From an uncultured Verrucomicrobiae bacterium (GTDB lineage: Bacteria > Chlamydiota > Chlamydiia > Chlamydiales > Rhabdochlamydiaceae), in the NCBI GenBank assembly GCA_963813135.1, contig CAWEXY010000004.1:1-28526 (forward strand): 28,526 bases of DNA, in the 5' to 3' direction. Position numbers and translations under genes: made by a program. Under the pieces are notes generated by a model that saw only the letters and a program-made list of their open reading frames with translations, was not told the DNA's origin and did no database searches. Positions 1,230-24,077 of this stretch are shown piece by piece. The stretch's first letter is position 1. Each line of letters starts with the position of its first letter.

Positions 1230-1475
1230 CATAACCTCTCTTTTAAAAGGGAAGTATACTTTTCTAACCTCAAAATACAAAGGAAAAATGCCACTAGCCG
1301 CAACATCACCCATTACTGCAAATCAAAATACGATTAGCCTGCATCAAACAACGACTAGTAGCGTAATAAAGCATTCCGCAAAAAATTCTAGCTCAGGAAA
1401 ATCCTGAAAAGGTATGCTTCTAGTACGTTGCCGCAATAAACCTACGGCGTGCTCAATAGGAAGAAAAAGCAGAAT

Positions 1476-7835: not shown

Positions 7836-9017
7836 ATGAAAATTTTACGATGGCTATTTAATTTATTCACATCTCATTCCCCAGACTGTAAACCCCCGAT
7901 TTCCTCTCAAAAAGAAAACCTCTTGAAAGTCCTTCATGTCTGCTATCATGACGGTTGCGTCAACGAGCTTCAAGCAATTGCTGATGCCCTATCATGGAAC
8001 CTTACCTCCTGGAACATTCATAAGCTTCCACCCTATTTCTACGACTATGCCGTCAAAAAAGGGAATATTTTATATAACCTAGGCTACGATCGAGCCAACC
8101 GCATTTGGGAAAAACACAAACAGTTTTTTGATCAATTTGATGTCATTATTACTTCGGATATCACTGCCGTTGCCCGAATTTTTCTTCAGAACGGTTGGAC
8201 GAAACCGATCATCTTATGGATCCATAGCCGTTTTGATTTTTCATACCATGGAGAAACCGATTGTGATTTCCCTGATAAAAAGTATTATGATCTTATGAGA
8301 GAGGCACGACATAGAAAAAACGTTTTCTTTGTACCATCTACTCCTTTCGAAATTTATTATGGAAACCAGAAAAATGTCGATTTGAACGGTTCGATAATTG
8401 CTGCCTGCGCATACTATCTTTATAACCTTAAAAATAATTGGCCTAAAAATCATGTTAAAAACAAGCAGCTCTTTATCCATGAAAGAACTGAAAACGTTCA
8501 AGCGCTTCACATCCGTTCTTTTCGAGTATCTAAATTTTTGCAGAAGATGGGCATTCCAGCCACCTGTTATCGCTATAAAACTTTAGAAGAACTTCAAGCA
8601 TTTAAGGGAGTTCTCTACTTGCCTTACCAATGGTACATTATCTCATTTTTTGAGGTCCTGCGTTTAGGTATTCCCATTTTTGTTCCTTCTGAATCTTTTT
8701 TACTGCATTTATTAAAGACCACCAATTATTTCTTTGAAAGAAGAGAGGACGCTATTGATAAACAGATGCTCCCTATCTCTGAATGGTATGCTCCAGCTGT
8801 GAGAGATATTGTGATCTATTTCGATTCTTGGGAAGATCTCAAAAACAAGGTGGAAAATCTTGATATCCAAGCAGTCCGACAAAAAAGTGTTGCCTATGCC
8901 CTTAAACACCAAGAAGAAATGCTGAAAAGATGGAAAGCTGTATTTGAAGAGGTCTGCAAGCTTTTGCCAGAAAAAGTGGTTAATGTCGAACTAACCAACC
9001 TGGAGACTTCCTCATGA
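7836..9017 (+). CDS. Hypothetical protein, probable GT-B-like glycosyltransferase; paralog of 14774..15955
   Basis: 393-aa ORF sharing the motifs FDQFDVII, KPII...SRFD, KGVLYLPYQ...SFFE...GIPIFVP and YFDSWEDL with 14774..15955. The function is inferred. Confidence 0.6.
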   Translation: MKILRWLFNLFTSHSPDCKPPISSQKENLLKVLHVCYHDGCVNELQAIADALSWNLTSWNIHKLPPYFYDYAVKKGNILYNLGYDRANRIWEKHKQFFDQFDVIITSDITAVARIFLQNGWTKPIILWIHSRFDFSYHGETDCDFPDKKYYDLMREARHRKNVFFVPSTPFEIYYGNQKNVDLNGSIIAACAYYLYNLKNNWPKNHVKNKQLFIHERTENVQALHIRSFRVSKFLQKMGIPATCYRYKTLEELQAFKGVLYLPYQWYIISFFEVLRLGIPIFVPSESFLLHLLKTTNYFFERREDAIDKQMLPISEWYAPAVRDIVIYFDSWEDLKNKVENLDIQAVRQKSVAYALKHQEEMLKRWKAVFEEVCKLLPEKVVNVELTNLETSS

Positions 9018-9505: not shown

Positions 9506-10675
9506 ATGCAACTGCTGCCCCTCTACTTAGGTTTTAGAATCCGATTATTTTTGATCGTCCTTATTTGCCTACTACAACTGCCTCTTATCGCATCTCTTGA
9601 ACCAAAGCTTTTTTATCAAAAATTGAGGGAACCGACCCCTCAATGGATGACCGAACAAATTGAAAAGGACTTGGCCCCTTTTCAAAAAGAACTGAGCCAG
9701 AAATATCTCGACGAGCTTTGGGCAAAATTCAACGAAGATTTTTATTTTATCAGGGTGCGGGTTGCGCAAGGCCAATTAACCTTTGAAAAAAGCAAGTTCG
9801 CCGTGAATTATAAAATGACAAAGCCAATGATTGGCGCTCTGACGGAGCTTCATGCGCTAACACCTTTACCTGACATGGATTTCATTTTTACACTTCATGA
9901 TGTATCACTTACCAAATATAGCTCTCTGTTGAATGCAGACTACCCCTCCGGCCCTCCCGGACCCATTTTTGCGATTACCAAAAATAAATTGGAGTCCGGG
10001 ATAATCATCATGCCTGATTGGTATGCTCTGCATGAATTCCATCCCGATAAAACTAAAATCCTCGAGGGGAGGCGGCTCATGCTTTCATCTTGGGAATCGA
10101 AATACCCTATCTTATTTTTTAGGGGAGGCGATAGTGGAGTTTTCGATCGCATGAATTGGAGAAATTGCGCTCGGCCCAAACTGGTTGCCCTCTCCTTGCA
10201 ACACCCCGATTTGATCGACGCTAAATTCAACTATTTCCTTCCTTATGAAGATGATCCATCCATCCGAAATCAGATGGTACGAGAGGGAATGCTGGGCAGG
10301 CATGTTCCAATCGAATACTTTCCTCGTTTCCGCTATTTGATGGATGTCGATGGACACTCGGCTAACACTCCCAGAGTTGCCTTATGCCTTTATTCTGGCT
10401 CGGTGTTGTTCAAGCAAACCTCAAATAATACTCTTTGGTTTTTTACAAAATTAAAACCTTATGTCCATTTTATTCCCGTTGCTGAAGATTTATCGGATAT
10501 TTTTACTCAAATAGAATGGGCCAAAAACCATGATGAGGAATGCAAAAAAATAGCACTGAATGCCTTCCAAGTCGCCGAAGAAACCCTGAGGTCCGAAAAT
10601 GTTTATCTGTATCTCTATCGGCTTCTAGAGGCCTATTCAAAGAAACAAAAAGACTATTACAATTTAACCGATTAG
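9506..10675 (+). CDS. Glycosyltransferase family 90 (CAP10/Rumi-POGLUT-like) with N-terminal hydrophobic signal/anchor
   Basis: Motifs LPDMDF, IMPD, FFRGGDSG, YLMDVDGHS, GSVLFKQ and LKPYVHFIPV..DLSD. ATG at 9506 preceded by GGAG. Confidence 0.85.
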   Translation: MQLLPLYLGFRIRLFLIVLICLLQLPLIASLEPKLFYQKLREPTPQWMTEQIEKDLAPFQKELSQKYLDELWAKFNEDFYFIRVRVAQGQLTFEKSKFAVNYKMTKPMIGALTELHALTPLPDMDFIFTLHDVSLTKYSSLLNADYPSGPPGPIFAITKNKLESGIIIMPDWYALHEFHPDKTKILEGRRLMLSSWESKYPILFFRGGDSGVFDRMNWRNCARPKLVALSLQHPDLIDAKFNYFLPYEDDPSIRNQMVREGMLGRHVPIEYFPRFRYLMDVDGHSANTPRVALCLYSGSVLFKQTSNNTLWFFTKLKPYVHFIPVAEDLSDIFTQIEWAKNHDEECKKIALNAFQVAEETLRSENVYLYLYRLLEAYSKKQKDYYNLTD

Positions 10676-10686
10676 GCAGCCTACAA

Positions 10687-12447
10687 ATGCTAACTTTTTC
10701 GAAAAGCAAGTTACTGATAGCTCTTTTGTATTGCCTGCCTATCGAAGGTCGAAGCTTGATCGAAGAGACCCCTTACCCAGCGTTTTGTCAACAAGCCGCT
10801 GATCACGAGGCGGCTTTTGCACACTTCAAACGCGAGGCTATTTATCAAGCTGTTTCGGAAACCGTCAAATATCAGACCGGCGCTGAATATTTAGACCTCA
10901 TTCTTCTCAAGGATCCCAATTTTGCTAGTTTATTTGATAAATTTCGGGAGAACGACTCAATAGGCGACCCAATAACCTACAATTACGGGAATTATGGCTG
11001 GTTCTCTCCAACGACATTGCGCTACATAAAAATTGCCTGCGAGTTAAAGCAAAAGTTCGGCGACTTAAGTCAAATGCATATCGTTGAAATCGGAGGCGGA
11101 TATGGGGGGTTGTGCAAGATCTTGCATGACTTGGGAGGATTTGCTAGTTATACAATCATAGATCTTCCGGAATGTAATGCCCTAGCAAAGAAACATCTGG
11201 CATTACTAGGCATCGAAAATGTCCATTTTATTGACAATAATAATCTTGCCCAAGCACAGCCTTACGATCTTGTAATTAGCAATTATATATTTTCTCAATT
11301 TGATCGAATGGGACAGCAGGCATTTATTGAGCGTGTCATTAAAGATACCCCGAATGGGTATTTGACCATGAATTTTATATCCCAGCATTTACAATCTCTT
11401 TCTATAGAGGAAATGATTCGAGTCCTTTATCAAAATAAGAAGACAGGAGTCGTCGAAAAAGAGCATCCCAATACGCACGCTGATAATGTTTTAATCACAT
11501 GGAAGCAGGGCTCTTCACTCCAAACCCTGAAGGAAAGAAATATTCCCCGCCCTACCACTGGTTTCCAAAGTGGAAATGGGATTACCTATAGCTTAAGCGG
11601 AGGACGCCTCGGGGATAATTTGCTTGCCTATCTCCATGCAAGATGGTTCGCTTTCAAATACAATATTCCGTTATATTACATTCCTTTTCCTTATTCTGAT
11701 CAGTTTCTTCTTTCTGAATTAGACCAGCCTTTGAATTCAGCTTTTCATTTTAAAAACACTATCCATATCGCTAGCGACAGCAACGAACTAGCAGTCCCTA
11801 ATTCATCTTTGTTTATCCTTCCCTACTATGCTGAATATCGATTTGAATACGATAGAACGCGGTTCTATTGGCTGCCTTTTTTCCAGATCGACTGGCAGGA
11901 TCCGGCATTTCGCGCCGAAGTTAAACGCTGTTTAACTCCAAAAGCGCCCATCGCAACCATAAATTTGCCTAAAGATCGGATAACGGTGGGCGTACACATC
12001 CGTAAAGGAGGAGGCTTCGACGGAGCAAATTCTTTTAAACGCTACCCTCTCAAATTCCCCTTTGATAACTATTATATTCAGCAAATCAAAAGAATTGCTC
12101 AAATTTTTCATGACAAGCCGCTTTACATTTATATACTAACCGATGACTTTGACCCTGCGAGACTCGCCCGACGCTATGCAATTGCGATAAATAATCGCAA
12201 CATTCACTTCGGTTACCGAAAAGGAAACAATGGACCCACTATCAATGTTTTGGAGGATTTTTTCTTAATCCCAAAATTTGACTGCTTGGTAATTAGTCAG
12301 TCTAATTTCTCCGTTGTCGCCTCTAAGCTCGCTGATTACGCCGTTACGATCACTCCACTTCACGCTACTTTTGTGGGCGATCGACCCGTCATCGATGAGG
12401 TCGAATTTTGTTTCAACGGTAATTACGCCATCGGAACCAAAAACTAG
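10687..12447 (+). CDS. Fusion of a putative sugar O-methyltransferase and a GT11-like (alpha-1,2-fucosyltransferase-like) domain
   Basis: N-terminal domain has IVEIGGGYGGLC, YTIIDLPE and DLVISNY. C-terminal domain has GGRLGDNLLAY, VGVHIRKGG, ILTDD and DCLVISQSNFS. Start taken at the ATG at 10687, after the upstream stop. Confidence 0.75.
   Translation: MLTFSKSKLLIALLYCLPIEGRSLIEETPYPAFCQQAADHEAAFAHFKREAIYQAVSETVKYQTGAEYLDLILLKDPNFASLFDKFRENDSIGDPITYNYGNYGWFSPTTLRYIKIACELKQKFGDLSQMHIVEIGGGYGGLCKILHDLGGFASYTIIDLPECNALAKKHLALLGIENVHFIDNNNLAQAQPYDLVISNYIFSQFDRMGQQAFIERVIKDTPNGYLTMNFISQHLQSLSIEEMIRVLYQNKKTGVVEKEHPNTHADNVLITWKQGSSLQTLKERNIPRPTTGFQSGNGITYSLSGGRLGDNLLAYLHARWFAFKYNIPLYYIPFPYSDQFLLSELDQPLNSAFHFKNTIHIASDSNELAVPNSSLFILPYYAEYRFEYDRTRFYWLPFFQIDWQDPAFRAEVKRCLTPKAPIATINLPKDRITVGVHIRKGGGFDGANSFKRYPLKFPFDNYYIQQIKRIAQIFHDKPLYIYILTDDFDPARLARRYAIAINNRNIHFGYRKGNNGPTINVLEDFFLIPKFDCLVISQSNFSVVASKLADYAVTITPLHATFVGDRPVIDEVEFCFNGNYAIGTKN
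11363..11392 (+). repeat. 30-bp perfect inverted repeat, copy 1 (partner 12616..12645)
   Basis: TGACCATGAATTTTATATCCCAGCATTTAC; exact reverse complement at 12616-12645. Confidence 0.9.
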
Positions 12448-12493
12448 CTTGGGGAGGAAAGCAATTAAGAAGCCTTGGGACAAGTCAATCGCG

Positions 12494-13336
12494 TTAAATA
12501 GACTTCCACGTAAGAATTCGATTATCGGGATGAGTGAGAGGATATTCTTTTACCACTGAACCTTGCTTTTTATTTTGATAGAGAATTTGAAGGAGTTCTT
12601 CTAAAGGGATAGAGCGTAAATGCTGGGATATAAAATTCATGGTCATGTACCCGTTAGGGGTACATTTAATAACATAATCTATATATCCTTGCTGCTCTTC
12701 TCTGTCGATTTCAGAAAAGGCATAATTGCTGATTACAAGATCGTATGATCCTAAGTTTGAAAGGTTTTTGTTATCAACAAAATGAACATTTTTTACGCCC
12801 ATTAAGGATAAATATTTTCGCGCCAAAGCATTGCATTCAGGCAGATCTATAATTGTGTAGGTGGCAAACCCCTTCAAGTCATTCAAAATCTTACATAATC
12901 CCCCGTATCCACCTCCAATTTCGACAATATGCATTTGGCTTAAGTCCCGGAACTGTTGCTTTAAATCGCAAGCAGTTTTTATATAACGTAAATTTGTTGG
13001 AGAAAACCAACCAAACCTTCCATAATTATAAATAACAGGGTCACCAACAGCATCGTTTTCACGGAATTTATCAAATAAAGTAACCAGGCTGGGCTCTTTC
13101 CGAAGTATTACATACAAATATTCGCCTCCAGATTCGCGACTTACCGTTTCAACAATGCCTTGATATGTAGGGCTTCTCTTGAAATGTGCAAACGTTTCGT
13201 CATTATCTGCTGCTTGCTGACAAAATGTTGGATAATAGGTGGCTCCTGATAGACTCGCTGCTACTAAAAAAGACCCCCATAAAATCAGGTAGCAATAAAA
13301 TATACCGATCGCAGTTTTTTTATAATTTGTCAGCAC
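12494..13336 (-). CDS. Putative sugar O-methyltransferase, stand-alone paralog of the N-terminal domain of 10687..12447
   Basis: Colinear with the fusion protein (FDKFREND, GWFSPT, DLSQMHIVEIGGGYGGLCKIL, TMNFISQHL). GTG start preceded by GGAG; hydrophobic N-terminus. Confidence 0.85.
   Translation of the reverse strand: MLTNYKKTAIGIFYCYLILWGSFLVAASLSGATYYPTFCQQAADNDETFAHFKRSPTYQGIVETVSRESGGEYLYVILRKEPSLVTLFDKFRENDAVGDPVIYNYGRFGWFSPTNLRYIKTACDLKQQFRDLSQMHIVEIGGGYGGLCKILNDLKGFATYTIIDLPECNALARKYLSLMGVKNVHFVDNKNLSNLGSYDLVISNYAFSEIDREEQQGYIDYVIKCTPNGYMTMNFISQHLRSIPLEELLQILYQNKKQGSVVKEYPLTHPDNRILTWKSI
12616..12645 (-). repeat. 30-bp perfect inverted repeat, copy 2 (partner 11363..11392)
   Basis: + strand reads GTAAATGCTGGGATATAAAATTCATGGTCA. 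Confidence 0.9.
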
Positions 13337-13380
13337 ACCATCTCCGCTCTTTTCTTAAAGTTGTGTAGTAACCTTATATG

Positions 13381-13974
13381 TCATCTTTGAATTTTTGCCA
13401 CTAGGACATCATTACGGCAATATCCATCTTCGTAAGAAATTTGGTAGTCTGGATTGATTTCTAAGATTTTAGCGATGACATCATCCAATTTAACAAAGTC
13501 GAATTCAGCCGTCCCAAACAGCCGCACGTCATCGATCAACAACGTATGGGTTTTAATGGAGTGTTGTCGAATGTTTTCTAATTCGGCCATAAGGGGGGTG
13601 TTGGTATTTCCTTTGCCTGTGCCCGGCCCAGAAAAGTGGCCATCCAGCCAAAAAGTTGCTGGAGCGTCTATCTCTTTCAAAATAATCGGCAATACATCGG
13701 AAGAATCCCCTAGATAAAGTTTGACGGAGGGGTTTGAAGCAAACAGGCGGCTGCACTTTTTGTAAAAAGCGGGAAATAGCTCTATCGAATATATCGTCTG
13801 AAAACGGCCGGTATTCAAAGCCATACGAATGCCGTCTCCCTGATAACTTCCCGTTTCTATGAAATATTTATTGGGGAATTTTGCAAAAACAGCCTGGCTT
13901 GTATGAGCTTCTGCGGATTGAAAAAACAAGATGGCGACAGTAAACAAAATGGAAAAAACAGAATATCCTCTCAC
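13381..13974 (-). CDS. SAM-dependent methyltransferase-like protein with Sec-type signal peptide
   Basis: Motifs FIETGSYQGDG, YSIEL, LGDS, FWLDGHFSG and LIDDVRLF. N-terminus VFSILFTVAILFFQSAEA ends in an AxA site. GTG start with GGAG. Confidence 0.7.
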   Translation of the reverse strand: MRGYSVFSILFTVAILFFQSAEAHTSQAVFAKFPNKYFIETGSYQGDGIRMALNTGRFQTIYSIELFPAFYKKCSRLFASNPSVKLYLGDSSDVLPIILKEIDAPATFWLDGHFSGPGTGKGNTNTPLMAELENIRQHSIKTHTLLIDDVRLFGTAEFDFVKLDDVIAKILEINPDYQISYEDGYCRNDVLVAKIQR

Positions 13975-14073
13975 AAAAATCTCCTATTCAAAATTTTGAC
14001 GATCGTCTTAAAGATATTGAAATCGTGTCTTTGGGTCAATTATTTACTGAACTCCAGACTCAACAAAAAAATG

Positions 14074-14102
14074 TTGCCTCAAGAACCGCTTTTCACTAAA
14101 TT
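14074..14102 (+). promoter_or_regulatory. Putative sigma70/sigma66-type promoter, possibly giving a leaderless mRNA
   Basis: TTGCCT-N17-TAAATT ends 6 nt before the ATG at 14109; no SD is visible. Confidence 0.4.
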
Positions 14103-14108
14103 AAAACC

Positions 14109-14777
14109 ATGCGGCGAATTTTCTTGATCAGCCTGCTTTTTCTGCATAAGGCTTTGCTTTTTGGACAAGGCGATGCAGAAAAAGTATTTAGCCAAATCTA
14201 TCAGCAGGGAGCCTGGGGCAAAGATCATTTAGGACAGGGGACCTCAGGCCCTGGGTCTACACTTAAAGAAGGCAGGCCCTTCATCAAATACGTGCAGGAC
14301 TTTTTACGTTCTTTTGATGTTCGGTCTATTGTCGATTTAGGCTGCGGGGATTGGGCGCTTGCGAGAGAGATCGATTGGTCCCATCGAAATTACTTAGGGA
14401 TAGACGTTGTTCCTAGTGTAATTGCAAAAAATCAAGCTTTATATGCTTCGGATAACATTAAGTTTCTTCATTTGGATGGTTCGGTCGAAGCTCTACCAAG
14501 TGCAGATCTTTTAATATGTAAAGACGTTTTACAACACTTGCCTCTTTCTAAAATTTTCCAGATCCTATTTCAAATACAAAAATTCAAATACGTTATATTT
14601 GTGAATGGGTTTAGCCAAGGAGACCTCGCGGTAAATGGGGATATTCCGATAGGCAGTTACCGCCCTTTAGATCTTTCAAAGCCTCCATTCAATTTAACAG
14701 CGCAAGACAAAAGCAACTATCTCTCTGGGCAAGAGATAAAGCAGATTTTCCTCATCGTCAACCCAAACATTTTATGA
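14109..14777 (+). CDS. Class I SAM-dependent methyltransferase with signal-like N-terminus
   Basis: Motifs WG...SGPGS, IVDLGCGD, LGIDVV and DLLICKDVLQHL. Confidence 0.85.
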   Translation: MRRIFLISLLFLHKALLFGQGDAEKVFSQIYQQGAWGKDHLGQGTSGPGSTLKEGRPFIKYVQDFLRSFDVRSIVDLGCGDWALAREIDWSHRNYLGIDVVPSVIAKNQALYASDNIKFLHLDGSVEALPSADLLICKDVLQHLPLSKIFQILFQIQKFKYVIFVNGFSQGDLAVNGDIPIGSYRPLDLSKPPFNLTAQDKSNYLSGQEIKQIFLIVNPNIL

Positions 14778-15955
14778 AAAGATTTGTACTGGCTGCGATC
14801 TTATTTTTAAACGTCATTTCAACGGTTACCGCCGAAGAAGAATTAGCGCCCAAAAAACACCTGCGCTTTTTTACTCTTGACTACCATAGTTCAGCGACGG
14901 CTGATGTGATGAATATTTTCGAAGCGCTGGGGCATGAAGTCGTGTATTGGTCCATCTCCCCCTATTCCCAACGAATATTCGGACATGACAACCATCCCGT
15001 TGAAATACTCAATCATGGTACATGGATTAACTTAAACACAGAGATGTGCAATCGCTTTTATGAAAGATATCGTGATTTTTTAAGTCAGTTTGACGGGTTC
15101 ATCGTCACCGCATTTTCGTCATTTGCGCTTGTATTTGAAAAATTCGACAAGCCAATTATTATAGTTAACTCATCTCGATATGAGATGCCTTTTACAGACA
15201 AGCCGGATTACTGGAATTTATTAAATCGCTTCCTAATTGATGGCGTAAATAGAAACAAAGTATTCGTCGTTGCAAATAACATCGGCGACGTAGAATATTT
15301 AAAACGTTATACCGGCATTGAAAGTGAATTTATCCCAAGCCTTTGTCTTTACACAAAGGCAGAATATACAGGAAAAATGAATGGGTTCATATTTCATAAT
15401 CCTAGATGCGCTCCCTTCATAAATGAAGCCGAATCTTTCTTAAGCCGGTTTGGATTAATCATGCCCTATCCCTATAATCACAAATCATTCCAAACTATGT
15501 GCGACTATAAAGGCATAATCCATATTCCTTACCAAATAAGCATCATGTCGTTGTTTGAACAATATAGCGCCAATATACCCCTGTTTTTCCCTACAAAAAA
15601 TCTTCTGTTCTCGATGTGGGGCCGCCGGCCTTCTGAGGTTTTGAACGAAATTTCCGCTTTTAAAATTTTTAATTCCAGGCCGCCGCCCACTATCGAGGGA
15701 GACCTTAATAATCTGAAAGATCCGAATGTTATAAAATTCTGGATCGATACCGCTGATTTCTATGACCAAGAAAATATGCCGCATATTCAATATTTCCACT
15801 CTTACAAACATTTGGAAGAATTGCTTCGAACGGTTGATACCCAAGAAATAAGCAGAAAAATGAAAGAGCATAACGTGCAAAAGAAAAAAATGGTGTTTGA
15901 GAAGTGGAAGCAGCTCTTGGAGAAGATCGCATTGGAGTGTAACAAAGAAGATTAA
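14774..15955 (+). CDS. Hypothetical protein, probable GT-B-like glycosyltransferase with signal peptide; paralog of 7836..9017
   Basis: N-terminus MKRFVLAAILFLNVISTVTA; motifs KPIIIVNSSRYE and KGIIHIPYQISIMSLFE..ANIPLFFP. 4-nt overlap with the upstream gene. Confidence 0.6.
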   Translation: MKRFVLAAILFLNVISTVTAEEELAPKKHLRFFTLDYHSSATADVMNIFEALGHEVVYWSISPYSQRIFGHDNHPVEILNHGTWINLNTEMCNRFYERYRDFLSQFDGFIVTAFSSFALVFEKFDKPIIIVNSSRYEMPFTDKPDYWNLLNRFLIDGVNRNKVFVVANNIGDVEYLKRYTGIESEFIPSLCLYTKAEYTGKMNGFIFHNPRCAPFINEAESFLSRFGLIMPYPYNHKSFQTMCDYKGIIHIPYQISIMSLFEQYSANIPLFFPTKNLLFSMWGRRPSEVLNEISAFKIFNSRPPPTIEGDLNNLKDPNVIKFWIDTADFYDQENMPHIQYFHSYKHLEELLRTVDTQEISRKMKEHNVQKKKMVFEKWKQLLEKIALECNKED

Positions 15956-16971
15956 AGATGGTTCTCTTCAAGGAGTGTTGTGAGATCGGCATCGATTTCT
16001 TTGATCTTGGAATCATAGGCGTCGGTCTCTTCCCTCATTGCTCGCGCGAAGAGCTGAAATTTACGGGAATTGAGTGAAATCCATGACACTAAATAATCGC
16101 GATGCCGTGCTTTGTCTTTCGAAAGGTTGAATCCGTTGGCTTGATCGGCAAACTGCTTCATCTTGTCCCACTCCGGAAGGATATTCGACTCAAAAAAGGA
16201 AAGCGTCCCTTCTATAGGAATCTGTTCATGCATCGTTGCGATTTTATCCTGCATCGTATCGAATTCTAGAACCCACTCGTCGAATCGAACAGCATCCGTT
16301 TTTTTCATCGCGCTTAGGGCCGTTGCCGTAGAGGCCGCCGTAATCAAACCTATTAGAAGGATCGTCGCGCGTTTGATGAGGGGCTTTTGTAAGGATAAGG
16401 AAGGATACAGACTAAACCCTAAAAGAAAACCGCTGAAAAGCCCTCCTAGGTGGGCTGCCACATTGACGTTAGAATCCCTCATACCATACATTATATTTAC
16501 GGCGAGGAACCCAATAAGCTTTTTAAGATTAGAATCTCTCCTTTCTTCGGAAAACAGCTCTGTGTTGAGAAGCGCGAATAGGGCCCCGATGATGCCGAAA
16601 ATCGCCCCCGATGCTCCCGCTTCGACCGTATAAGAATGCAAATGCGCAAACTGGCTGGCGAGCCCCCCAAAAATCCCCGAGGCTAAATAGACTGCCGCAA
16701 ATCGGGCTTTTCCGATCAGCGGCTCAAGAGTAGATCCTATGTCAAATAAGATGTAGAGGTTCATCCCAAGATGGATGATCCCAAAATGGACAAACATGGA
16801 AGTAAATAGACGCCAGGACTCGCCATGCAACATGGATTGTGTATTACATCCGCCCCAATGCAGAACTTGCTCGGTCGTCGGCGCAAAAAAAGAAACGCCG
16901 GAGCAAAGCATTAACACATAGACGATTAAATTAGCGGCGATGAGCAGAAGCGTGATGCGCATGTTGTTCAT
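15952..16971 (-). CDS. Rhomboid-family intramembrane serine protease with C-terminal soluble extension
   Basis: WR motif (SWRLFT), HFGIIHLGMN, catalytic GASG and AAHLGG. ATG at 16971 overlaps the upstream TGA. Confidence 0.92.
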   Translation of the reverse strand: MNNMRITLLLIAANLIVYVLMLCSGVSFFAPTTEQVLHWGGCNTQSMLHGESWRLFTSMFVHFGIIHLGMNLYILFDIGSTLEPLIGKARFAAVYLASGIFGGLASQFAHLHSYTVEAGASGAIFGIIGALFALLNTELFSEERRDSNLKKLIGFLAVNIMYGMRDSNVNVAAHLGGLFSGFLLGFSLYPSLSLQKPLIKRATILLIGLITAASTATALSAMKKTDAVRFDEWVLEFDTMQDKIATMHEQIPIEGTLSFFESNILPEWDKMKQFADQANGFNLSKDKARHRDYLVSWISLNSRKFQLFARAMREETDAYDSKIKEIDADLTTLLEENHL

Positions 16972-17675
16972 AAAAGCCTTCGAAGAAGATGCCATCTGAG
17001 GCACGTTTGCTGAGAAGCAAATGTGCGGATCTCTTCGATGGATAGTTTAGAGAAAAGCGCCATTTCTTTGTCGGTCAAACCAGCAGCTAGGCGCAGGCCG
17101 ACTTTGTTCAAGCACTTTTTAAAAATCCTCCGCTCGATGCAGAGGCGTGCGGCAAAGAAAGTAAAAAAGGGAAGGCTCCAAAGGGGCTCAAAAATTCCTA
17201 GGGCAAGGGCCAGTAAAAATATAATGGACTCTTTGGAAGATCGAAAAAGCGGCCCGCAGAAGCGCCTCCATTTCTTGGGCGACGTTGCGTATGCCAGATG
17301 CTCTTCAAACCTTGGCTCATGGAACATGCAGCGGAGGACATGGACGGCTTCGTGAGTTAAAACTTCGATGGGCTTGTAACCCCAGCTTTTGAGTTCGATG
17401 GCAGCTGCGCCCTCTTCGGAGATCCACGTAGCTCCCCCCTCCCAAAAGAAGAGGCGTTTGGCCTTATTGACGGGAACCCAATCGATAGCAAAGCCCAGCA
17501 AGGGCTGAAGAATGACGTTCGCTTCGTGCCAATGGGATGCATAGGACGGCGCAGCTCTTTGAATACGCTTCTCAAAAGCTTCTGCCGTCTCTTGCGGCCC
17601 CGGAAGAAGCCCGCGGCTAAGCGCGGCGCAGAGACTTTCGGTACTTAAGGAACAGGAGTGTAAATCCGATGACAT
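16968..17675 (-). CDS. Conserved hypothetical membrane protein with HExxH zinc-peptidase-like motif (resembles, from memory, the chlamydial CT642-type gene near topA)
   Basis: GLLPGP, THEAVH followed by FEEHLAY, WRRFCGPLFR and a hydrophobic hairpin. Start uncertain (59-nt overlap with the upstream gene). Confidence 0.65.
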   Translation of the reverse strand: MSSDLHSCSLSTESLCAALSRGLLPGPQETAEAFEKRIQRAAPSYASHWHEANVILQPLLGFAIDWVPVNKAKRLFFWEGGATWISEEGAAAIELKSWGYKPIEVLTHEAVHVLRCMFHEPRFEEHLAYATSPKKWRRFCGPLFRSSKESIIFLLALALGIFEPLWSLPFFTFFAARLCIERRIFKKCLNKVGLRLAAGLTDKEMALFSKLSIEEIRTFASQQTCLRWHLLRRLL

Positions 17676-18675
17676 TGAGGAACGTGATTACTCCAAAAAA
17701 GAGAAGGATTTTATTGGTCTTCTTCGTGATTTTCATGAGACGCTCGCGCACCATTTTTTCAAAGGGATTTTCATTCTCAAACCACGTTCCACCGTAGAGA
17801 TGGCGCGAATAGATCGCGAGATCATCGCGGGGCGCATTGAAATAGAAGGCGGGGAAGGCGACATCGCGGCTTCCTTTCTTGCCAGCGAGCTCCTTAAAGG
17901 ACTCGCCGAGGGCTAAAAAGGTGCGGTGGGCCACGCGGTTGATCACTGCATCGCGGTCCTTGCCGGGATAATCGCGATCGAGCTGGTCCCATTTTAGCGC
18001 GAGCCATTCCATGCAGCGCTCTAAAATCGGATGGCCGGCCTTCGATGCGACAATATTGTTGGTAGGCAGAACGGAAGAGCTGAGCGCCGTTTTATAAGGC
18101 ATCTCCATTCCAATGAACAGGTCCAAGCTGGAGTTGAGGGGCTGGAAAGACTTGAAGCATTTCACATCATGGTCAACGTAGATTCCTCCTTCGGCAAAGA
18201 GTATCTCATAGCGCAGAACGTCGGACTTTTCTCCATAATTGTCCGATTTATTATAGCAGTCGAACAAACGGGCAAACTTGAGGTCTTGAATGAAGCATTT
18301 TTGGAGTTTGGGATGAGGAACGGGGCGGTCGCGGTCGGTCCAAAATTTAAAGGTCCAGTCGGGGTGCTTGGCGACCCATGAGCGGACATTCTCGATGGAC
18401 TCGCGCGGGAAGGGTTTGGGGCCGATCCAAATAAAGTGGATGGTTTTAGGAATCCGCTGAGCGATGCTTTTTTCCTCTATGAGAGGAAGGCTGCGCTCGT
18501 AGATATTTTTAAAAAAAGCGAGATTTTCAAAATCTTCCGGGGTTTGGACAAATTGCCATCTTTCAGTCCCTTTGCCCATGAGGGTTTCAAAATCGGCCTT
18601 ATCTTTTTCATCTTTCTTTTTAGAGCAGGAGAACAAAAGGGGGAGCAGTGCTAGCAGAACAACGATTTTTTTCAT
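17617..18675 (-). CDS. GT32-like DxD glycosyltransferase; predicted lipoprotein with C-terminal TM anchor
   Basis: Motifs IPKTIHFIWIG, KSDVLRYEIL and GGIYVDHD. Lipobox-like LLFS-C at the N-terminus; C-terminal hydrophobic helix followed by KYRKSLRRA. Confidence 0.85.
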   Translation of the reverse strand: MKKIVVLLALLPLLFSCSKKKDEKDKADFETLMGKGTERWQFVQTPEDFENLAFFKNIYERSLPLIEEKSIAQRIPKTIHFIWIGPKPFPRESIENVRSWVAKHPDWTFKFWTDRDRPVPHPKLQKCFIQDLKFARLFDCYNKSDNYGEKSDVLRYEILFAEGGIYVDHDVKCFKSFQPLNSSLDLFIGMEMPYKTALSSSVLPTNNIVASKAGHPILERCMEWLALKWDQLDRDYPGKDRDAVINRVAHRTFLALGESFKELAGKKGSRDVAFPAFYFNAPRDDLAIYSRHLYGGTWFENENPFEKMVRERLMKITKKTNKILLFFGVITFLNVIGFTLLFLKYRKSLRRA

Positions 18676-19760
18676 ATTTTCCTTACCATATATTTTATGG
18701 AAAGTCCCATTAGAAGCAAATTAAAAGCGCCCATTATGCCTATCAAGATGAGCATACGGTTATATTTATTTTGAACTTTGCCTAGATCGCGTGTGATCTG
18801 TTTCTCAAAAGAAGCCTCTTTCTTTTTCCCGTCGGACCAAGAATTCGCAAAAAAATGTTTTGAATAAACAGGTTTTAGGCCCGGTTTGGCAAAGAAATAG
18901 GCTGCGGGGAAAACGATATCGCGATTTCCATTCTCGCTAAGGGGACCTCTCAGCGCGAGGGTGAGGGGCAAATAGGTGCGCTCCATGACGATCTGCGTGC
19001 GGGAAAACCCATCTTTGTTGGGATATTTTGCCGCCAGCTCCTCCCATCTCCCCTCGATAAGATCGATGACGCGTTGAATGACCGGATGTCCTGGGCGCGC
19101 GCCCAGGACGCCCATGCCGGCTGTCACGTTCAGCCCGGCAACCATGGGATGAGGGACTTCGAGGCCGCAATAAAAATCATATCCTCGATGGAGCCCCTCA
19201 AAAGAAATGAGGCAATTGGCGTCATGGTCGACGTAAGTTCCACCCTCGTAGAAAAGAATTTCATAGCGGAGAACATCCGATTTTTCTCCCCAGTTGTCGG
19301 AGGCTTCGTAATATTTTCCTAGTTGGAAAGGGTATTTATTGAAGACGACGACTTCCATGCCATGGCAAGGCGGCGGACGCTCGCGATCGGTCCAAAATTT
19401 AAACTTCCATGTCGGATTCTTGGCCATCCACGTGCGGACATTTTCTACGGATTCGGAAGGAAATTGCTTAGGACCTACCCATATGAAATGAACGACGGGG
19501 GGGATTTTCCAAGGGCCTTCTGCGGTGTAGCGATAGGCAGCATTGCTGTCGTAAAGCGACCGGAATTTATCGAGCGCCGCTAAATCTATAGATTGCTTGA
19601 CATGGGACCAATGCTTCGTCTCCTTTCCCATCCACGTATCGAATTCCCCCGCATAAAGGCAGGAAACAAAGAACAAGAGAAGAAAACGCAAAGGCGCAAA
19701 GGCATGAAGTGAGACTCTGCGTCTTTGCGTCTTTGCGTTAAAAATTCTCTGTATTTTCAT
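18672..19760 (-). CDS. GT32-like DxD glycosyltransferase with signal peptide and C-terminal TM anchor
   Basis: Motifs IPPVVHFIWVG, KSDVLRYEIL and GGTYVDHD. Tandem paralog of 17617..18675; 4-nt overlaps at both ends. Confidence 0.85.
   Translation of the reverse strand: MKIQRIFNAKTQRRRVSLHAFAPLRFLLLFFVSCLYAGEFDTWMGKETKHWSHVKQSIDLAALDKFRSLYDSNAAYRYTAEGPWKIPPVVHFIWVGPKQFPSESVENVRTWMAKNPTWKFKFWTDRERPPPCHGMEVVVFNKYPFQLGKYYEASDNWGEKSDVLRYEILFYEGGTYVDHDANCLISFEGLHRGYDFYCGLEVPHPMVAGLNVTAGMGVLGARPGHPVIQRVIDLIEGRWEELAAKYPNKDGFSRTQIVMERTYLPLTLALRGPLSENGNRDIVFPAAYFFAKPGLKPVYSKHFFANSWSDGKKKEASFEKQITRDLGKVQNKYNRMLILIGIMGAFNLLLMGLSIKYMVRKI
19685..19739. repeat. REP-like palindromic element inside the 5' coding region of the GT32 gene
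   Basis: AACGCAAAGGCGCAAAGGC (19685-19703) pairs with GTCTTTGCGTCTTTGCGTT (19721-19739) at 17 of 19 positions, plus two G:T. Internal 8-mer CTYTGCGT occurs three times. Confidence 0.75.
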
Positions 19761-21457
19761 CGGCGGGGCACAAAAGTGATTTCATGCTCGATGTGCAACG
19801 AGCGGTTAGAGATTTGATGGAACGGGGCAATATCTATTTTGAGCCCTGCTTCAAACTTGCCGAGCAATTCTTCCGTCGTATAACTTTGCATGTTTCGGTT
19901 GGCTTCTGCATTTTGCACCACATTGAGAGGAACATTCACAACCTTAGCTGAATTGAAGTAAAGGCCTACCATATTCTTATCTCCCTTGAGGGCCCAGCGA
20001 GATTCCATCGAAGTCGGATGCGTGAATTCGATTTTTTGAAGGCGGGGAAGAATCTCTTCTTTACGATAGATCGTCATGTCTAGATTGTGGAGATAGCGCC
20101 AATCATCGCGGCCCATTTTGAACTGCCAAGCCAGCATATTTTCTTGGAGTTCGACCGATGGAGGAACAACTTCTTGTTTTCTTTTCATGTAACAATAATC
20201 GATCTCTTTACCCATGCGGAGGAAAAAGGCATATCCGTGGCTTGCTTTGAGAGCCTCTGTGCATTTGGCGATATCAATAATGTCCTTGACGATGATGTCA
20301 TCGACGGCAAAGAGGACGAAGGGAGAAGGCGTGCTTTTGATCATATCTAAGGTGAGAGGCTTAAAATCGCTTGCGGGGTCTATGCCTTGCGCGCGGAACT
20401 GCACTTGCGGATAAGCGGCCTTCACTTTTTCGTAGCCAGCGGCAAACGGGCCGTCAGCGCGATAAAGCACTGTCGTTTCGCCCAAGCCTGTTACATATTT
20501 CTGCACCGACTCTAAGAGGGCGTAGAGCTGCAAAGGGCGATTATAAGAAAAAATAATGAGGTCGGCTTTTTCGGCCTTCTGCGTTGCCTGCGGCCTCTCT
20601 TCTAATGGCTGATACTTTGGCAGCGACCGCACATAAGAGATCATATCAAATTGCTTTTGCCATCTTAGTTTGTCGTCGTTCAAAGGATTGGCGTGATTGT
20701 ACAGATAAAGGACGTCCTTTATGAAATGGGCATGCGTTCCCGCCATTTCTAAAATCGGCAGCATAACGGCGACATCTGACGCTGATTGCAGAAAATTTCC
20801 CTCAAAAAGAAGATCTTGAAGATAAATTTCTTTAAATAGCCCTGCATAAAAAGTTTTAAGGTGCGAAGCTCCCCATTTATGGGTCCTGACCTGGTTTTTT
20901 TCGAGGACGGAAGCGGGCAGGGGCTTGGCCCAGCCCCCTTTCTTATAGCTAGGGTATTCGACATAGCTGCCATAGGTGACCCACACATCGGGATTGGCAT
21001 AAATCGAATTTAATTTTTTCAAGACGCCGTCGTGAGCAAACTGGTCATCTCCATCAAGAAGGACCGCAATCTCGTCATCGCCGCACATATGGACCGCCTT
21101 ATAGAGGTTCGCGGCAGCGCCTTGGTTGCGATCGTTATGAAGGAGGGTAAAACGCTCAGGATGAGCGGACTGCTGAATGATCGTTTCAACTTTTTCAAAG
21201 GTTCCATCCGTCGAAGCGTCATCGATATAGATCACGCGGAAGTTCTCATAGTCTTGCTCGAGGATACTGCGAAGATTTTTTTCACACCACTGAGCGTTGT
21301 TGTAAGAAGGGGTGATGACGACAAAAGATTTTTGCTCTTTTACTTCCCATACGACCTCGACAGGCGGCTTCCTCGCCCACTTTTTCCATACTTTAGGTCC
21401 GAAATGGCCGAGTGAAAAAACCGAGATAAGGATAAAAAAAATTAGAGATTTGGACAT
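19757..21457 (-). CDS. Two-domain glycosyltransferase (GT2 plus a second GT-A-like domain) with N-terminal membrane anchor
   Basis: First domain has VVITPSYN, YIDDASTDGT and LLDGDD. Second domain has IIFSYNRPLQL and FAVDD. Confidence 0.88.
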   Translation of the reverse strand: MSKSLIFFILISVFSLGHFGPKVWKKWARKPPVEVVWEVKEQKSFVVITPSYNNAQWCEKNLRSILEQDYENFRVIYIDDASTDGTFEKVETIIQQSAHPERFTLLHNDRNQGAAANLYKAVHMCGDDEIAVLLDGDDQFAHDGVLKKLNSIYANPDVWVTYGSYVEYPSYKKGGWAKPLPASVLEKNQVRTHKWGASHLKTFYAGLFKEIYLQDLLFEGNFLQSASDVAVMLPILEMAGTHAHFIKDVLYLYNHANPLNDDKLRWQKQFDMISYVRSLPKYQPLEERPQATQKAEKADLIIFSYNRPLQLYALLESVQKYVTGLGETTVLYRADGPFAAGYEKVKAAYPQVQFRAQGIDPASDFKPLTLDMIKSTPSPFVLFAVDDIIVKDIIDIAKCTEALKASHGYAFFLRMGKEIDYCYMKRKQEVVPPSVELQENMLAWQFKMGRDDWRYLHNLDMTIYRKEEILPRLQKIEFTHPTSMESRWALKGDKNMVGLYFNSAKVVNVPLNVVQNAEANRNMQSYTTEELLGKFEAGLKIDIAPFHQISNRSLHIEHEITFVPRR

Positions 21458-21481
21458 TACCTATCAATTTTCCATAGGTAA
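21457..21481. promoter_or_regulatory. 8-bp inverted repeat, possible operator, in the GT2/topA divergent region
   Basis: TTACCTAT-N9-ATAGGTAA, overlapping a weak minus-strand TTGACG-N17-GAAAAT. Confidence 0.3.
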
Positions 21482-21558
21482 ATCATTTCCGTCAATGTTC
21501 TCATCCTTGTGCAAAATAGTCAAAAGATGATATCAACCTTTAAACTACCTGTTTGGTT

Positions 21559-24060: not shown

Positions 24061-24077
24061 TCTGAAATACGACCAAG

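Follow-up and report, generated by a model that had tools for sequence, protein, structure and literature searches.

In a 28,526-nucleotide stretch of DNA, here called the window, from an environmental, Rhabdochlamydiaceae-like member of the Chlamydiota of the intracellular type, a number of glycosyltransferases and methyltransferases begin with secretion signals, so that their probable site of action is outside the bacterial cytoplasm. We favour, with a probability of roughly 0.55, the reading that eight of these enzymes, all but a GT2 glycosyltransferase, are exported by Sec and act in the periplasm or in the lumen of the host vacuole on host-derived SAM and NDP-sugars. If so, a chlamydia-like bacterium would be adding sugars and methyl groups outside its cytoplasm with building blocks from its host. 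To our knowledge, bacteria offer no established examples of Leloir glycosyltransferases or SAM methyltransferases that act outside the cytoplasm, and our literature search found no description of such a pattern of signal-bearing SAM- and NDP-sugar-dependent enzymes in chlamydiae.

The initial annotation had treated 9506..21457 as one set of enzymes. The window instead comprises two units, a GT2-GT32-GT32 core block that is conserved in the Chlamydiota and a low-GC variable island. The island would itself consist of two halves, a signal-less one for sugar nucleotides, GT4 and methyl transfer and Wzm/Wzt export, and one of six putative tailoring enzymes with Sec signals (GT90, a fusion of an O-methyltransferase with a fucosyltransferase-fold domain, a second O-methyltransferase, a small methyltransferase-like protein, a methyltransferase and a GT-B enzyme). 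The features are as follows.

432..1313, minus strand: FkbM-type methyltransferase without a segment, in the cytoplasmic part of the island (PF05050, 77.3 bits).
1449..2690, plus strand: NDP-sugar-type C-methyltransferase without a signal (PF08484, 159.4 bits).
2687..3997 and 3997..5271, minus strand: two weak GT1/GT4-like glycosyltransferases without a signal (PF00534, 23.4 and 21.1 bits, under the cut-off of 26.4).
5268..6290, minus strand: Fcl-like NAD-dependent epimerase/reductase without a signal (PF01370, 182.2 bits).
6199..6936, minus strand: Wzt-like ABC ATPase (PF00005, 65.7 bits).
6940..7731, minus strand: Wzm-like ABC-2 permease (PF01061, 49.4 bits).
7836..9017, plus strand: distant paralog (19% identity, by alignment; no Pfam match) of the GT-B enzyme at 14774, without a signal.
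9506..10675, plus strand: GT90 glycosyltransferase with a signal-peptide-like N-terminus, MQLLPLYLGFRIRLFLIVLICLLQLPLIAS (..LPLIAS/LEPK; PF05686, 123 bits).
10687..12447, plus strand: fusion of a NanM-type sugar O-methyltransferase with a fucosyltransferase-fold C-domain, behind one N-terminal signal, MLTFSKSKLLIALLYCLPIEG (TIGR04371, 68.3 bits).
12494..13336, minus strand: sugar O-methyltransferase of the NanM type, whose hydrophobic N-terminus of 20 aa may be a signal or an anchor (TIGR04371, 82.5 bits).
13381..13974, minus strand: 197-aa protein with a classical signal, MRGYSVFSILFTVAILFFQSAEA (..QSAEA/HTS; signal in 24 of 29 chlamydial homolog ORFs).
14109..14777, plus strand: SAM methyltransferase with a signal-like N-terminus, MRRIFLISLLFL (PF08241, 24.7 bits; PF13649, 27.1 bits).
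14774..15955, plus strand: GT-B fold glycosyltransferase of an unnamed family, by AF2 and Foldseek, with a classical signal, MKRFVLAAILFLNVISTVTA (..STVTA/EEE).
15952..17004, minus strand: rhomboid intramembrane protease with a C-terminal extension (PF01694, 115.8 bits).
16968..17675, minus strand: conserved protein of unknown function without a signal, member of the core block (homologs in 33 of 40 loci; no Pfam match).
17617..18675, minus strand: GT32a glycosyltransferase (DXD) with a lipoprotein signal (LFSC), MKKIVVLLALLPLLFSC, and a C-terminal TM helix (PF04488, 52 bits).
18672..19760, minus strand: GT32b, with a signal-peptide-like N-terminus and a C-terminal TM helix (PF04488, 34.6 bits).
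19757..21457, minus strand: 566-aa GT2 glycosyltransferase whose N-terminal helix leads into a K/R-rich stretch (PF00535, 86.9 bits).
24078..25283, minus strand: polytopic O-antigen ligase/polymerase-like membrane protein with eight TM-like windows (PF04932, 30.4 bits, just below the 31.7 cut-off).
25255..26667, minus strand: ManC (GDP-mannose pyrophosphorylase/isomerase) without a signal (PF01050, 180.8 bits; PF00483, 171.2 bits).

The core block, in the order GT2, GT32b, GT32a, ORF 16968, lies beside topA and recurs in many Chlamydiota; the rhomboid protease borders the island and is syntenic in a relative of the same genus.

Pfam confirms the GT90, GT2 and two GT32 labels of the initial annotation, and its O-methyltransferase at 12494..13336 is a TIGR04371 sugar O-methyltransferase, as is the N-terminal half of the fusion. 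The sequence gives no confirmation of the GT11 label for the other half, which, judged from its structural model (pLDDT 93.5; top Foldseek matches FUT8, AtFUT1 and POFUT1), is a fucosyltransferase-fold domain only, GT11 membership not being established. Modelling likewise indicates that the 14774 product is a GT-B glycosyltransferase (AF2, pLDDT 94.2; Foldseek match to BshA, 3mbo, E 5.8e-7, and also to PglA and GT4). The 197-aa protein is probably a small class I SAM methyltransferase, an assignment that draws on weak matches (Methyltransf_24 in 7/27 homologs, a best PDB profile match to the O-methyltransferase 5zw3 at E 0.0095, and an Atlas lead).

All nine enzymes that had been said to start with a basic and hydrophobic segment do so, each quoted segment being present in the sequence. 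Our topology calls use an in-house rule of hydrophobicity and charge. As had been claimed, the same rule finds no segment in the C-methyltransferase, the GT4-like proteins (both), the Fcl-like protein and ManC, nor in the FkbM-type methyltransferase, the 7836 paralog, ORF 16968..17675 and TopA. Such a pattern might arise from miscalled start codons or from hydrophobic N-termini that line up by chance: of 76 ORFs that the rule flagged in other loci, at least 10 are evidently cytoplasmic enzymes and so false positives, and the longest ORF of the fusion opens 147 nt too early. We nevertheless regard an artefact as extremely improbable. The true start of the fusion is most likely the ATG at 10687, 12 nt past the GT90 stop, and not 10540; a homolog (P0337, 57% identity to the fusion) begins at the same place. 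Three starts (14774, 18675 and 19760) overlap the upstream stop as ATGA, and homolog gene calls in independent assemblies open with the same type of segment. The initial annotation had itself considered that the true starts might lie downstream of the segments, but no downstream start would leave the conserved domain intact. Finally, of 1645 ORFs roughly collected from the same genome, 353 (21%) have an N-terminal hydrophobic segment and 161 (9.8%) start with what looks like a simple signal peptide; at the 21% rate, the binomial chance of segments in 9 of 11 consecutive genes is ∼3e-5, neighbouring genes not being independent.

The segments recur in homologs, mostly with an N-in charge bias. 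They are present in 113/120 GT32a homologs (105 of them N-in), in 71/96 GT90 homologs (63 N-in), in 127 of 150 representatives of the MT/FucT-like family at 50% clustering (114 N-in), in 69/120 members of the GT-B 14774 family (57 N-in) and in 29/32 GT32b homolog ORFs (24 N-in). In these five families the charge difference thus predicts N-in/C-out in 83–93% of segment-bearing homologs. About 15 of 18 standalone homologs of the 14109 methyltransferase have a signal by eye. Standalone C-domains and standalone methyltransferases carry one signal each, and MT+GT and MT+FucT fusions a single one. The signal is clade-specific among GT-B family members: a tree of 116 rows needs 11 changes, whereas shuffling gives a mean of 37 (0/500 shuffles as low). 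These patterns support the view that the segments are inherited features with the behaviour of genuine Sec signals rather than products of chance or of misplaced starts. Around homologs in 20 other chlamydial loci, signal-flagged enzymes occur in runs, with 18 GT-family and 15 MT matches among the 76 flagged ORFs. Among the conserved cysteines there is no disulfide signature, which counts against export.

The segments could still be mere membrane tethers, either N-out anchors or re-entrant/monotopic helices, in which case the enzymes would face the cytoplasm near an Und-P-linked acceptor and use the cell's own SAM and GDP-/UDP-sugars before export by Wzm/Wzt. Bacterial SAM and NDP-sugar donors are known to be cytoplasmic, the O-methyltransferase segment, at 20 aa, is long enough to span the membrane, and the island has its own ManC/Gmd/Fcl route (Gmd is encoded on the adjoining contig, 521.7 bits) next to an ABC exporter. 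That route accords more readily with a fucosyltransferase in the cytoplasm than with one that is exported and, because it provides cytoplasmic GDP-sugars, host donors are not the sole option. The tie to the exporter is weak, since, of 20 other neighbourhoods, a single one has Wzm/Wzt next to a homolog. We consider tethering unlikely as a general explanation. Besides the charge bias, several hydrophobic cores are merely 10–15 aa long (MT fusion 11, MT14109 10, GT32a 15), and the uncharged stretch of homolog segments has a median of 15–18 aa, which is the length of a signal peptide and not of a membrane span. Homolog segments recurrently end in ..LEA/ and ..A/LD, three deep clades of the GT-B tree start directly at the domain, and clades of that family that look non-chlamydial lack any segment. 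The lipobox that the initial annotation had noted in one GT32 (LLFSC) is conserved, the Cys aligned to C17 being kept in 95% of 120 GT32a homologs.

GT2 is the exception. Its segment is followed by KKWARK, giving a charge difference of −2, and its homologs are split between 12 N-in, 6 zero and 12 N-out (n=30); the segment is probably an N-out anchor that leaves the domain in the cytoplasm. The proposal that all nine enzymes are exported therefore loses GT2 and keeps the others, with their conserved, predicted Sec-like signals, while the converse concern, that the segments are uncleaved anchors of cytoplasmic domains, fits GT2 and runs against the predicted orientation in the five families.

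Signals might also be relics that came along with genes of eukaryotic or large-virus origin, the exported proteins being inactive without donors or serving as lectin-like binders. The nearest named non-chlamydial GT90 matches are fungal, and the folds are common to eukaryotic lumenal enzymes. We think this very unlikely, because catalytic and donor-binding residues are invariant in hundreds of diverged homologs (the GT32a DHD in 120/120; H156/R158 in the FucT-like domain), whole clades keep the signal, and the families are widespread in the phylum (168/400, 93/401 and 68/401 genomes). GT32a-like genes are found in 0/29 and 0/23 genomes of two families of the phylum.

If the enzymes do leave the cytoplasm, they may go further, as effectors that reach the vacuole lumen by Sec and type II secretion and act on glycoconjugates of the host or on glycoproteins that the bacterium secretes, for example collagen-like ones, instead of a Wzm/Wzt polysaccharide. 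The genome has a cluster of secretin and T2SSF genes, and eukaryotes have lumenal enzymes of the same kinds (GT90, GT32 and the FUT8/POFUT1-like fold). In other chlamydial loci, the neighbours of homologs include collagen-repeat proteins with signals, a PLOD-type GT and a 2OG oxygenase, mostly without Wzm/Wzt. Lumenal glycosyl transfer has a precedent in Chlamydia trachomatis, where secreted enzymes make glycogen in the vacuole lumen from host UDP-glucose supplied through SLC35D2 (Gehre et al., 2016; PMC4829429). We hold the effector explanation to be rather improbable, since GT32a and GT32b have a C-terminal membrane helix (in 119/120 GT32a homologs) and GT32a a lipid anchor, so that both would remain on a bacterial membrane; in the window the enzymes sit together with genes for polysaccharide assembly and export in a single low-GC island, and a candidate substrate protein is absent from the window. 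The GT32a C-terminal helix has a net charge of +4 on both sides, so charge leaves its orientation unfixed.

On the preferred reading of Sec export and action on host donors, eight of the nine enzymes would cross the inner membrane by Sec. GT32a would become a lipoprotein additionally tethered by its C-terminal helix, and the others would be cleaved or N-anchored; the genome encodes Lgt and LspA. Whether in the periplasm, at the cell surface or, once released by type II secretion, in the vacuole lumen, they would add sugars and methyl groups to a glycan or glycoprotein. We infer export, cleavage, this activity, the donor source and the acceptor; observed are the signals with their conservation and N-in charge bias, the intact donor-binding motifs and the genes for Sec-lipoprotein and type II machinery. 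The donors, SAM and GDP-/UDP-sugars, would be drawn from a host pool that must already cross the periplasm of an energy parasite importing nucleotides and SAM. An intracellular lifestyle had been thought probable, and four TLC/NTT matches, an energy-parasite trait, bear this out. A search of the genome for transporters, as had been proposed, yielded two DMT-type carriers, each 2xEamA, but no match to the nucleotide-sugar transporter families PF04142 and PF03151. A host supply of SAM is plausible, given that no MetK was found in the genome (completeness 82.5%), the two carriers, and the documented transport of host SAM into chlamydiae by CTL843, homologs of which are present in every member of the Chlamydiales that had been sequenced by then (Binet et al., 2011; PMC3104491).

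That SAM/SAH transporter demonstrates that SAM from the host gets to the chlamydial envelope and passes through it; it is a transporter and not a tailoring system, and the two 2xEamA carriers are its candidate counterparts. The C. trachomatis glycogen enzymes resemble the proposed system in that an NDP-sugar-dependent glycosyltransferase works outside the bacterium's own cytoplasm, there supplied through a recruited Golgi transporter, but they leave by type III secretion and have no signal peptide (PMC4829429), whereas the window enzymes have Sec or lipoprotein signals. They also belong to other families (GT90, GT32, FucT-fold and GT-B) and include SAM methyltransferases. The comparison with eukaryotic lumenal enzymes made in the initial annotation stands for GT90 and GT32 by Pfam and for the fucosyltransferase-like fold, though not for GT11: POGLUT1/CAP10-type GT90, Och1-type GT32 and FUT8/POFUT1/AtFUT1 of the ER/Golgi share these families or folds, and in them a targeting segment at the N-terminus brings a Leloir enzyme into a non-cytosolic compartment supplied with imported donors, as is proposed here. 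Eukaryotic ER/Golgi glycosyltransferases are mostly type II, with an uncleaved anchor and stem, whereas the window segments are mostly short, cleavable-looking bacterial signals, one of them a lipoprotein signal, and the two GT32 proteins have an extra C-terminal helix; moreover, no compartment-feeding transporter was identified in the genome with the two families searched.

Closer to home, the joint presence of a Wzm/Wzt-like exporter, GT4-like proteins, ManC, methyltransferases and a ligase-like membrane protein recalls an E. coli O8/O9a-type O-polysaccharide locus. In that WbdA-D type ABC pathway all glycosyl and methyl transfers take place at the cytoplasmic face, whereas six further transferases of the island carry export signals. 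In GtrABC systems, O-antigen is tailored in the periplasm from a lipid-linked sugar by a polytopic GT-C enzyme. Sec export of the window enzymes would likewise alter a glycan after its export, on the periplasmic side, but with enzymes of soluble-type folds (GT-A/GT-B and class I methyltransferase) that are predicted to bind NDP-sugars and SAM.

Nine enzymes encoded between 9506 and 21457 had been described in the initial annotation as beginning with a short basic and hydrophobic segment, and all nine quoted segments were found in the sequence:

9506-10675 (+), GT90 glycosyltransferase
10687-12447 (+), fusion of a methyltransferase (MT) with a predicted fucosyltransferase-like (FucT-like) domain
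12494-13336 (-), O-methyltransferase (O-MT)
13381-13974 (-), ORF 13974, probable small methyltransferase
14109-14777 (+), ORF 14109, methyltransferase
14774-15955 (+), ORF 14774, predicted GT-B glycosyltransferase
17617-18675 (-), GT32a
18672-19760 (-), GT32b
19757-21457 (-), GT2

Signals were called with a hydrophobicity and charge rule devised for this analysis, not with SignalP. Within the window the rule flagged the nine enzymes and a rhomboid protease. Both GT4-like proteins, the Fcl-like protein, ManC and the C-methyltransferase, listed initially as lacking a segment, were indeed left unflagged, as were the FkbM-type methyltransferase, a 14774 paralog at 7836, ORF 16968 and TopA. GT90 starts at the ATG at 9506, and at three starts (14774, 18675 and 19760) an ATGA overlaps the preceding stop codon. 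For the MT fusion, the most likely start is the ATG at 10687 rather than the longest-ORF start at 10540: 10687 lies 12 nt past the GT90 stop, and the start of a 57% identical homolog (P0337) falls at the corresponding residue. In a crude ORF set of the genome (n = 1645), a hydrophobic N-terminal segment is seen in 353 (21%), and 161 (9.8%) resemble simple signal peptides; binomial arithmetic, which ignores that neighbouring genes are not independent, puts the chance of a segment in nine of 11 consecutive genes at ~3e-5.

By the same rule, GT90, the MT fusion, ORFs 13974, 14109 and 14774, and GT32b carry 1-4 K/R ahead of the core, their uncharged stretches measuring 10-19 aa, and all six have the n-region and hydrophobic core of a Sec (SPase I) signal. 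Small residues are seen at -3/-1 (the slash follows -1) in ORF 13974 (AEA/H), ORF 14774 (VTA/E), GT90 (IAS/L) and GT32b (LYA/G), and endings of the type LEA/ and A/LD recur in the homologs. 

N-terminal segments in homologs of five window enzymes (family; homologs; with segment; N-in/C-out by charge)
GT32a (54-100% identity); 120; 113; 105
GT-B (ORF 14774); 120; 69; 57
GT90; 96; 71; 63
MT/FucT-like (50%-identity representatives); 150; 127; 114
GT32b; 32; 29; 24

The segments are kept where the remaining protein has diverged. ORF 13974 has a signal in 24 of 29 chlamydial homolog ORFs, often ending in LEA, and ORF 14109 in ~15 of 18 standalone homologs, judged by eye. Standalone FucT-like domains and standalone O-MTs each have a signal of their own, and fusions (MT with FucT-like; a 14109-like MT with a 14774-like enzyme in the homolog P0123) have a single N-terminal one, an arrangement to be expected of domains that all have to enter one compartment. 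In the GT-B family (tree of 116 rows) the signal changes 11 times, at least five of them forced, against a mean of 37 after shuffling, and none of 500 shuffles was as low as 11. Three deep clades of this tree start directly at the catalytic domain; the sole named member of the signal-less clades is from Desulfobacterota, and the named signal-bearing members are from Chlamydiota. Conserved cysteine columns, our proxy for disulfides and an oxidising compartment, number 1-3 per family and do not clearly set clades with a signal apart from those without one. Cluster look-ups of 30 homologs with and without a signal gave a single organism name, Chlamydiales. The MT/FucT-like family numbers 3430 hits. 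A blastp search at 1e-5 found no paralogs of the signal-bearing enzymes elsewhere in the genome. In the window itself, a 393-aa distant paralog of the 14774 enzyme (19% identity) lies in the same island, at 7836-9017 (+), and has no signal.

The main rival explanation is that the segments are membrane tethers of enzymes that face the cytoplasm. The median uncharged stretch in the homologs is 15-18 aa, which is the length found in signal peptides and is short for a membrane span, and we consider tethering unlikely for the set as a whole. It is how we read GT2. The GT2 helix is followed by KKWARK and has a charge difference of -2, and the enzyme is read from its sequence as an N-out anchor with a predicted cytoplasmic catalytic domain; its homologs (n = 30) are divided between 12 N-in, six zero and 12 N-out. 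The proposal that all nine enzymes are exported holds, as a prediction, for eight of them, and GT2 does not fit it. We conclude that the signals on these eight are real, conserved and, as judged from sequence, export-oriented, export itself being predicted. That Sec-exported glycosyl- and methyltransferases act outside the cytoplasm is the reading we prefer, with a probability of roughly 0.55; export, cleavage, activity there, donors and acceptor are all predicted.

GT32a would reach the envelope as a lipoprotein. The lipobox reported for it is present (LFSC), its cysteine is kept in the alignment in 95% of 120 homologs, and 97 of the 120 match the strict lipobox pattern. The genome encodes Lgt (PF01790, 217.2 bits) and LspA (PF01252, 93.6 bits); GT32a has the features of a bacterial lipoprotein (SPase II) signal and is predicted to be acylated. 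Its D168-H-D170 (DHD) motif is invariant (120/120), and a C-terminal hydrophobic helix is present in 119 of 120 homologs. A conserved proline had raised the possibility of a re-entrant, PglC-like helix in GT32a; we rejected it, as the core is only ~13-15 aa and ends in the conserved lipobox cysteine.

Family labels were examined. Pfam confirmed both GT32 enzymes (PF04488, DXD; 52 bits for GT32a and 34.6 for GT32b, cut-off 23), GT2 (a PF00535-type match of 86.9 bits) and GT90 (PF05686; 123 bits, cut-off 24, over residues 61-393). The O-MT and the N-terminal half of the fusion are NanM-type sugar O-methyltransferases (TIGR04371; 82.5 and 68.3 bits, cut-off 44). The label GT11 for the C-terminal half of the fusion is not borne out by sequence: PF01531 touches only two of 44 homologs (best E 0.021), only three of 44 match NodZ (best E 0.012), and the half itself has no Pfam family at E <= 10. 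Its structural model (pLDDT 93.5) retrieved only fucosyltransferases as top Foldseek matches, namely FUT8, AtFUT1 and POFUT1 (E 9e-8 to 4e-5, TM 0.42-0.49), and H156 and R158 of an H-x-R donor motif are invariant in 44 sequences. On the modelled structure, this half is a predicted fucosyltransferase-superfamily fold (a GT23/GT37/GT65-like GT-B variant) and a putative fucosyltransferase-type enzyme.

ORF 14774 has no family in Pfam or NCBIfam, and relaxing Pfam to E <= 10 gave chance-level matches only, as it did for ORF 16968. The model of ORF 14774 (pLDDT 94.2) matches BshA (3mbo, E 5.8e-7, TM 0.54-0.57) and also 7qsg, PglA (8dqd) and 2jjm; these matches include a GT4 enzyme and a mycobacterial methylmannose-polysaccharide mannosyltransferase, and the protein is accordingly modelled as a two-Rossmann, GT4-like GT-B glycosyltransferase. 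ORFs 13974 and 7836 have no Pfam family at E <= 10, and sequence searches of the PDB with the fusion C-half and ORFs 13974 and 14774 gave nothing usable. Among 27 homologs of ORF 13974, seven match Methyltransf_24 (best E 5.7e-4), but Polysacc_deac_1 likewise has seven matches among the 27. The best PDB profile match is an O-MT (E 0.0095). Together with the Methyltransf_24 matches and an Atlas lead, this weakly supports reading the protein as a probable small class I SAM methyltransferase. The stretch carries four or five methyltransferase and five glycosyltransferase domains bearing N-terminal segments. Two homolog proteins, P0123 and P0162, combine a 14109-like methyltransferase and a 14774-like GT-B enzyme in one polypeptide of 584-591 aa.

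The enzymes had been presented as one set. Runs of signal-bearing genes are there, but they belong to two units, a core block (GT2, GT32b, GT32a and ORF 16968, beside topA) and a variable island to the left of the rhomboid gene. We compared 40 loci around GT32a homologs, nearly all in Rhabdochlamydiaceae, Parachlamydiales, Simkaniaceae or Chlamydiae MAGs. GT32b has a match in all 40, ORF 16968 in 33, TopA in 32 and GT2 in 27, while each gene left of the rhomboid was found in 0-5 of the same loci. In a genome of the same genus (L002, GT32a 91% identical), the order GT2-GT32b-GT32a-ORF 16968-X-rhomboid is present and the island is absent. GC content lies between 0.38 and 0.45 in the first 16 kb; from 16 to 28 kb it is mostly 0.46-0.53, apart from a single bin of 0.41 at 24-25 kb. 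Of 400 genomes sampled from the phylum, 168 have a GT32a-like gene; by family, the counts are 74 of 90 in that of the window and 0 of 29 and 0 of 23 in two others. From synteny, island absence, GC and these counts, we conclude that the core block is ancestral across a large part of the phylum and that the island is variable low-GC cargo.

Five of the loci have, between their two GT32 genes, a methyltransferase that resembles ORF 14109 (25-32% identical) and carries a hydrophobic N-terminal segment, at ~9.3-10.0 kb in L008-L010 and L013 and at 5.3-6.0 kb in L027. The rhomboid protease, at 15952-17004 (-), has a C-terminal extension of ~150 aa. Its gene marks the boundary between island and core block and is syntenic in L002; one idea is that the protease might shed some of the anchored enzymes.

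Other chlamydial genomes were also surveyed near their homologs of ORFs 13974 and 14109, in 20 neighbourhoods of ~20 kb each; the rule flagged 76 of 332 ORFs there, which were sorted by Pfam.

Signal-flagged ORFs in the surveyed neighbourhoods (class; number)
Glycosyltransferase families (GT2 x4, Anp1 x4, GT11 x2, GT6, GT9, GT10, GT17, GT25, PLOD-type, CAP59, weak RXYLT1); 18
Methyltransferases; 15
Sulfotransferase, 2OG oxygenase and LicD, one each; 3
Ordinary envelope proteins, two with collagen repeats; 13
Without family; 17
Enzymes evidently cytoplasmic, wrongly flagged by the rule; 10

The PLOD-type glycosyltransferase, the 2OG oxygenase and the sulfotransferase are in L126, L128 and L132 respectively. 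Signal-flagged proteins with collagen triple-helix repeats are encoded at L139:11573-12667 (-) and L140:7964-8890 (+), near flagged glycosyltransferases (GT2 in L139, Anp1-like in L140) and 14109-like methyltransferases; such collagen-like proteins are possible candidates for secreted glycoprotein substrates. In the window, a possible ABC-transporter-dependent O-polysaccharide set comprises a permease and an ATPase above cut-off and both GT4-like proteins and Wzy_C below theirs; no initiating transferase was identified at this locus. Wzm/Wzt homologs adjoin a homolog in only one of the 20 neighbourhoods (L131), so the association with an ABC exporter is not general, and a general role of these enzymes in tailoring ABC-exported polymers was dropped.

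The genome belongs to Chlamydiota, as indicated by the related loci, four TLC/NTT nucleotide-transporter matches and a topoisomerase I that ends in a SWIB domain, a fusion typical of chlamydiae. No SAM synthetase domain was found in the 82.5%-complete genome, and two 2xEamA carriers are encoded. CTL843, a chlamydial transporter of SAM and SAH, has this domain arrangement, and PMC3104491 reports homologs of it in all Chlamydiales genomes then available. Because of the NTT and 2xEamA carriers and the lack of a SAM synthetase match, we infer that host nucleotides and SAM must cross the periplasm of this organism. Neither PF04142 nor PF03151, two families of nucleotide-sugar transporters, was found in the genome; for PF04142 the blank says little, since it matched in no control genome. 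The organism has a GDP-sugar route of its own, with ManC and the Fcl-like protein in the window and a true Gmd (521.7 bits) on the adjoining contig, and this, with the missing transporter families, counts against a purely host-fed model. A secretin/T2SSF cluster in the genome may offer a route past the periplasm.

There is one published precedent. In C. trachomatis, according to PMC4829429, glycogen is made in the vacuole lumen by secreted enzymes from host UDP-glucose imported via SLC35D2. That account describes the glycogen enzymes as lacking a signal peptide and as substrates of type III secretion, whereas the window enzymes have Sec-type N-termini. The suggestion that donors are taken from the host has this one precedent and is coherent with the organism's biology, the donors themselves being predicted. 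More tentatively, the periplasm and vacuole lumen of environmental chlamydiae could serve as a Golgi-like compartment, in which Sec-exported Leloir glycosyltransferases and SAM methyltransferases make or tailor glycans and glycoproteins with activated donors siphoned from the host. In this genome, such a system would follow on from a conventional line of cytoplasmic assembly and ABC export; in relatives, a sulfotransferase-family and a 2OG-oxygenase-family protein would also take part.

In bacterial glycan synthesis, to our knowledge, every NDP-sugar- or SAM-dependent step is cytoplasmic and periplasmic steps use lipid-linked donors. A Golgi-like system would be a second, extracytoplasmic mode of glycosylation in bacteria. 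If the enzymes do act outside the cytoplasm, an energy parasite would be able to feed such reactions in its periplasm or vacuole with metabolites of the host, and the glycogen system of C. trachomatis, so far the only precedent, would be joined by a wide range of Sec-dependent enzymes. This would also reveal a new level of dependence on the host and of surface-glycan mimicry, and would be relevant to the exchange of genes for Golgi-type enzymes among chlamydiae, protists and large viruses. No description of signal-bearing glycosyl- or methyltransferases in Chlamydiae was found in the literature searched for this pattern.

The window is the entire contig C4 of a 1.83 Mb genome in 31 contigs, estimated to be 82.5% complete. 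The rightmost 8.2 kb of the window (20370-28526) is found again at the end of the 259-kb contig C11 (259398-251254, reverse strand), with 98.08% identity over 8166 nt. This makes C4 a continuation of C11 and indicates that two close strains were probably co-assembled. A frameshift breaks a GT4 glycosyltransferase gene at 26639-27801 (-) into two frames, of 264 and 162 aa, and the C11 copy is a single intact 387-aa frame; the break reflects either an error of assembly or pseudogene formation in one strain. A 362-aa ORF antisense within topA, at 22414-23502 (-), is probably spurious.
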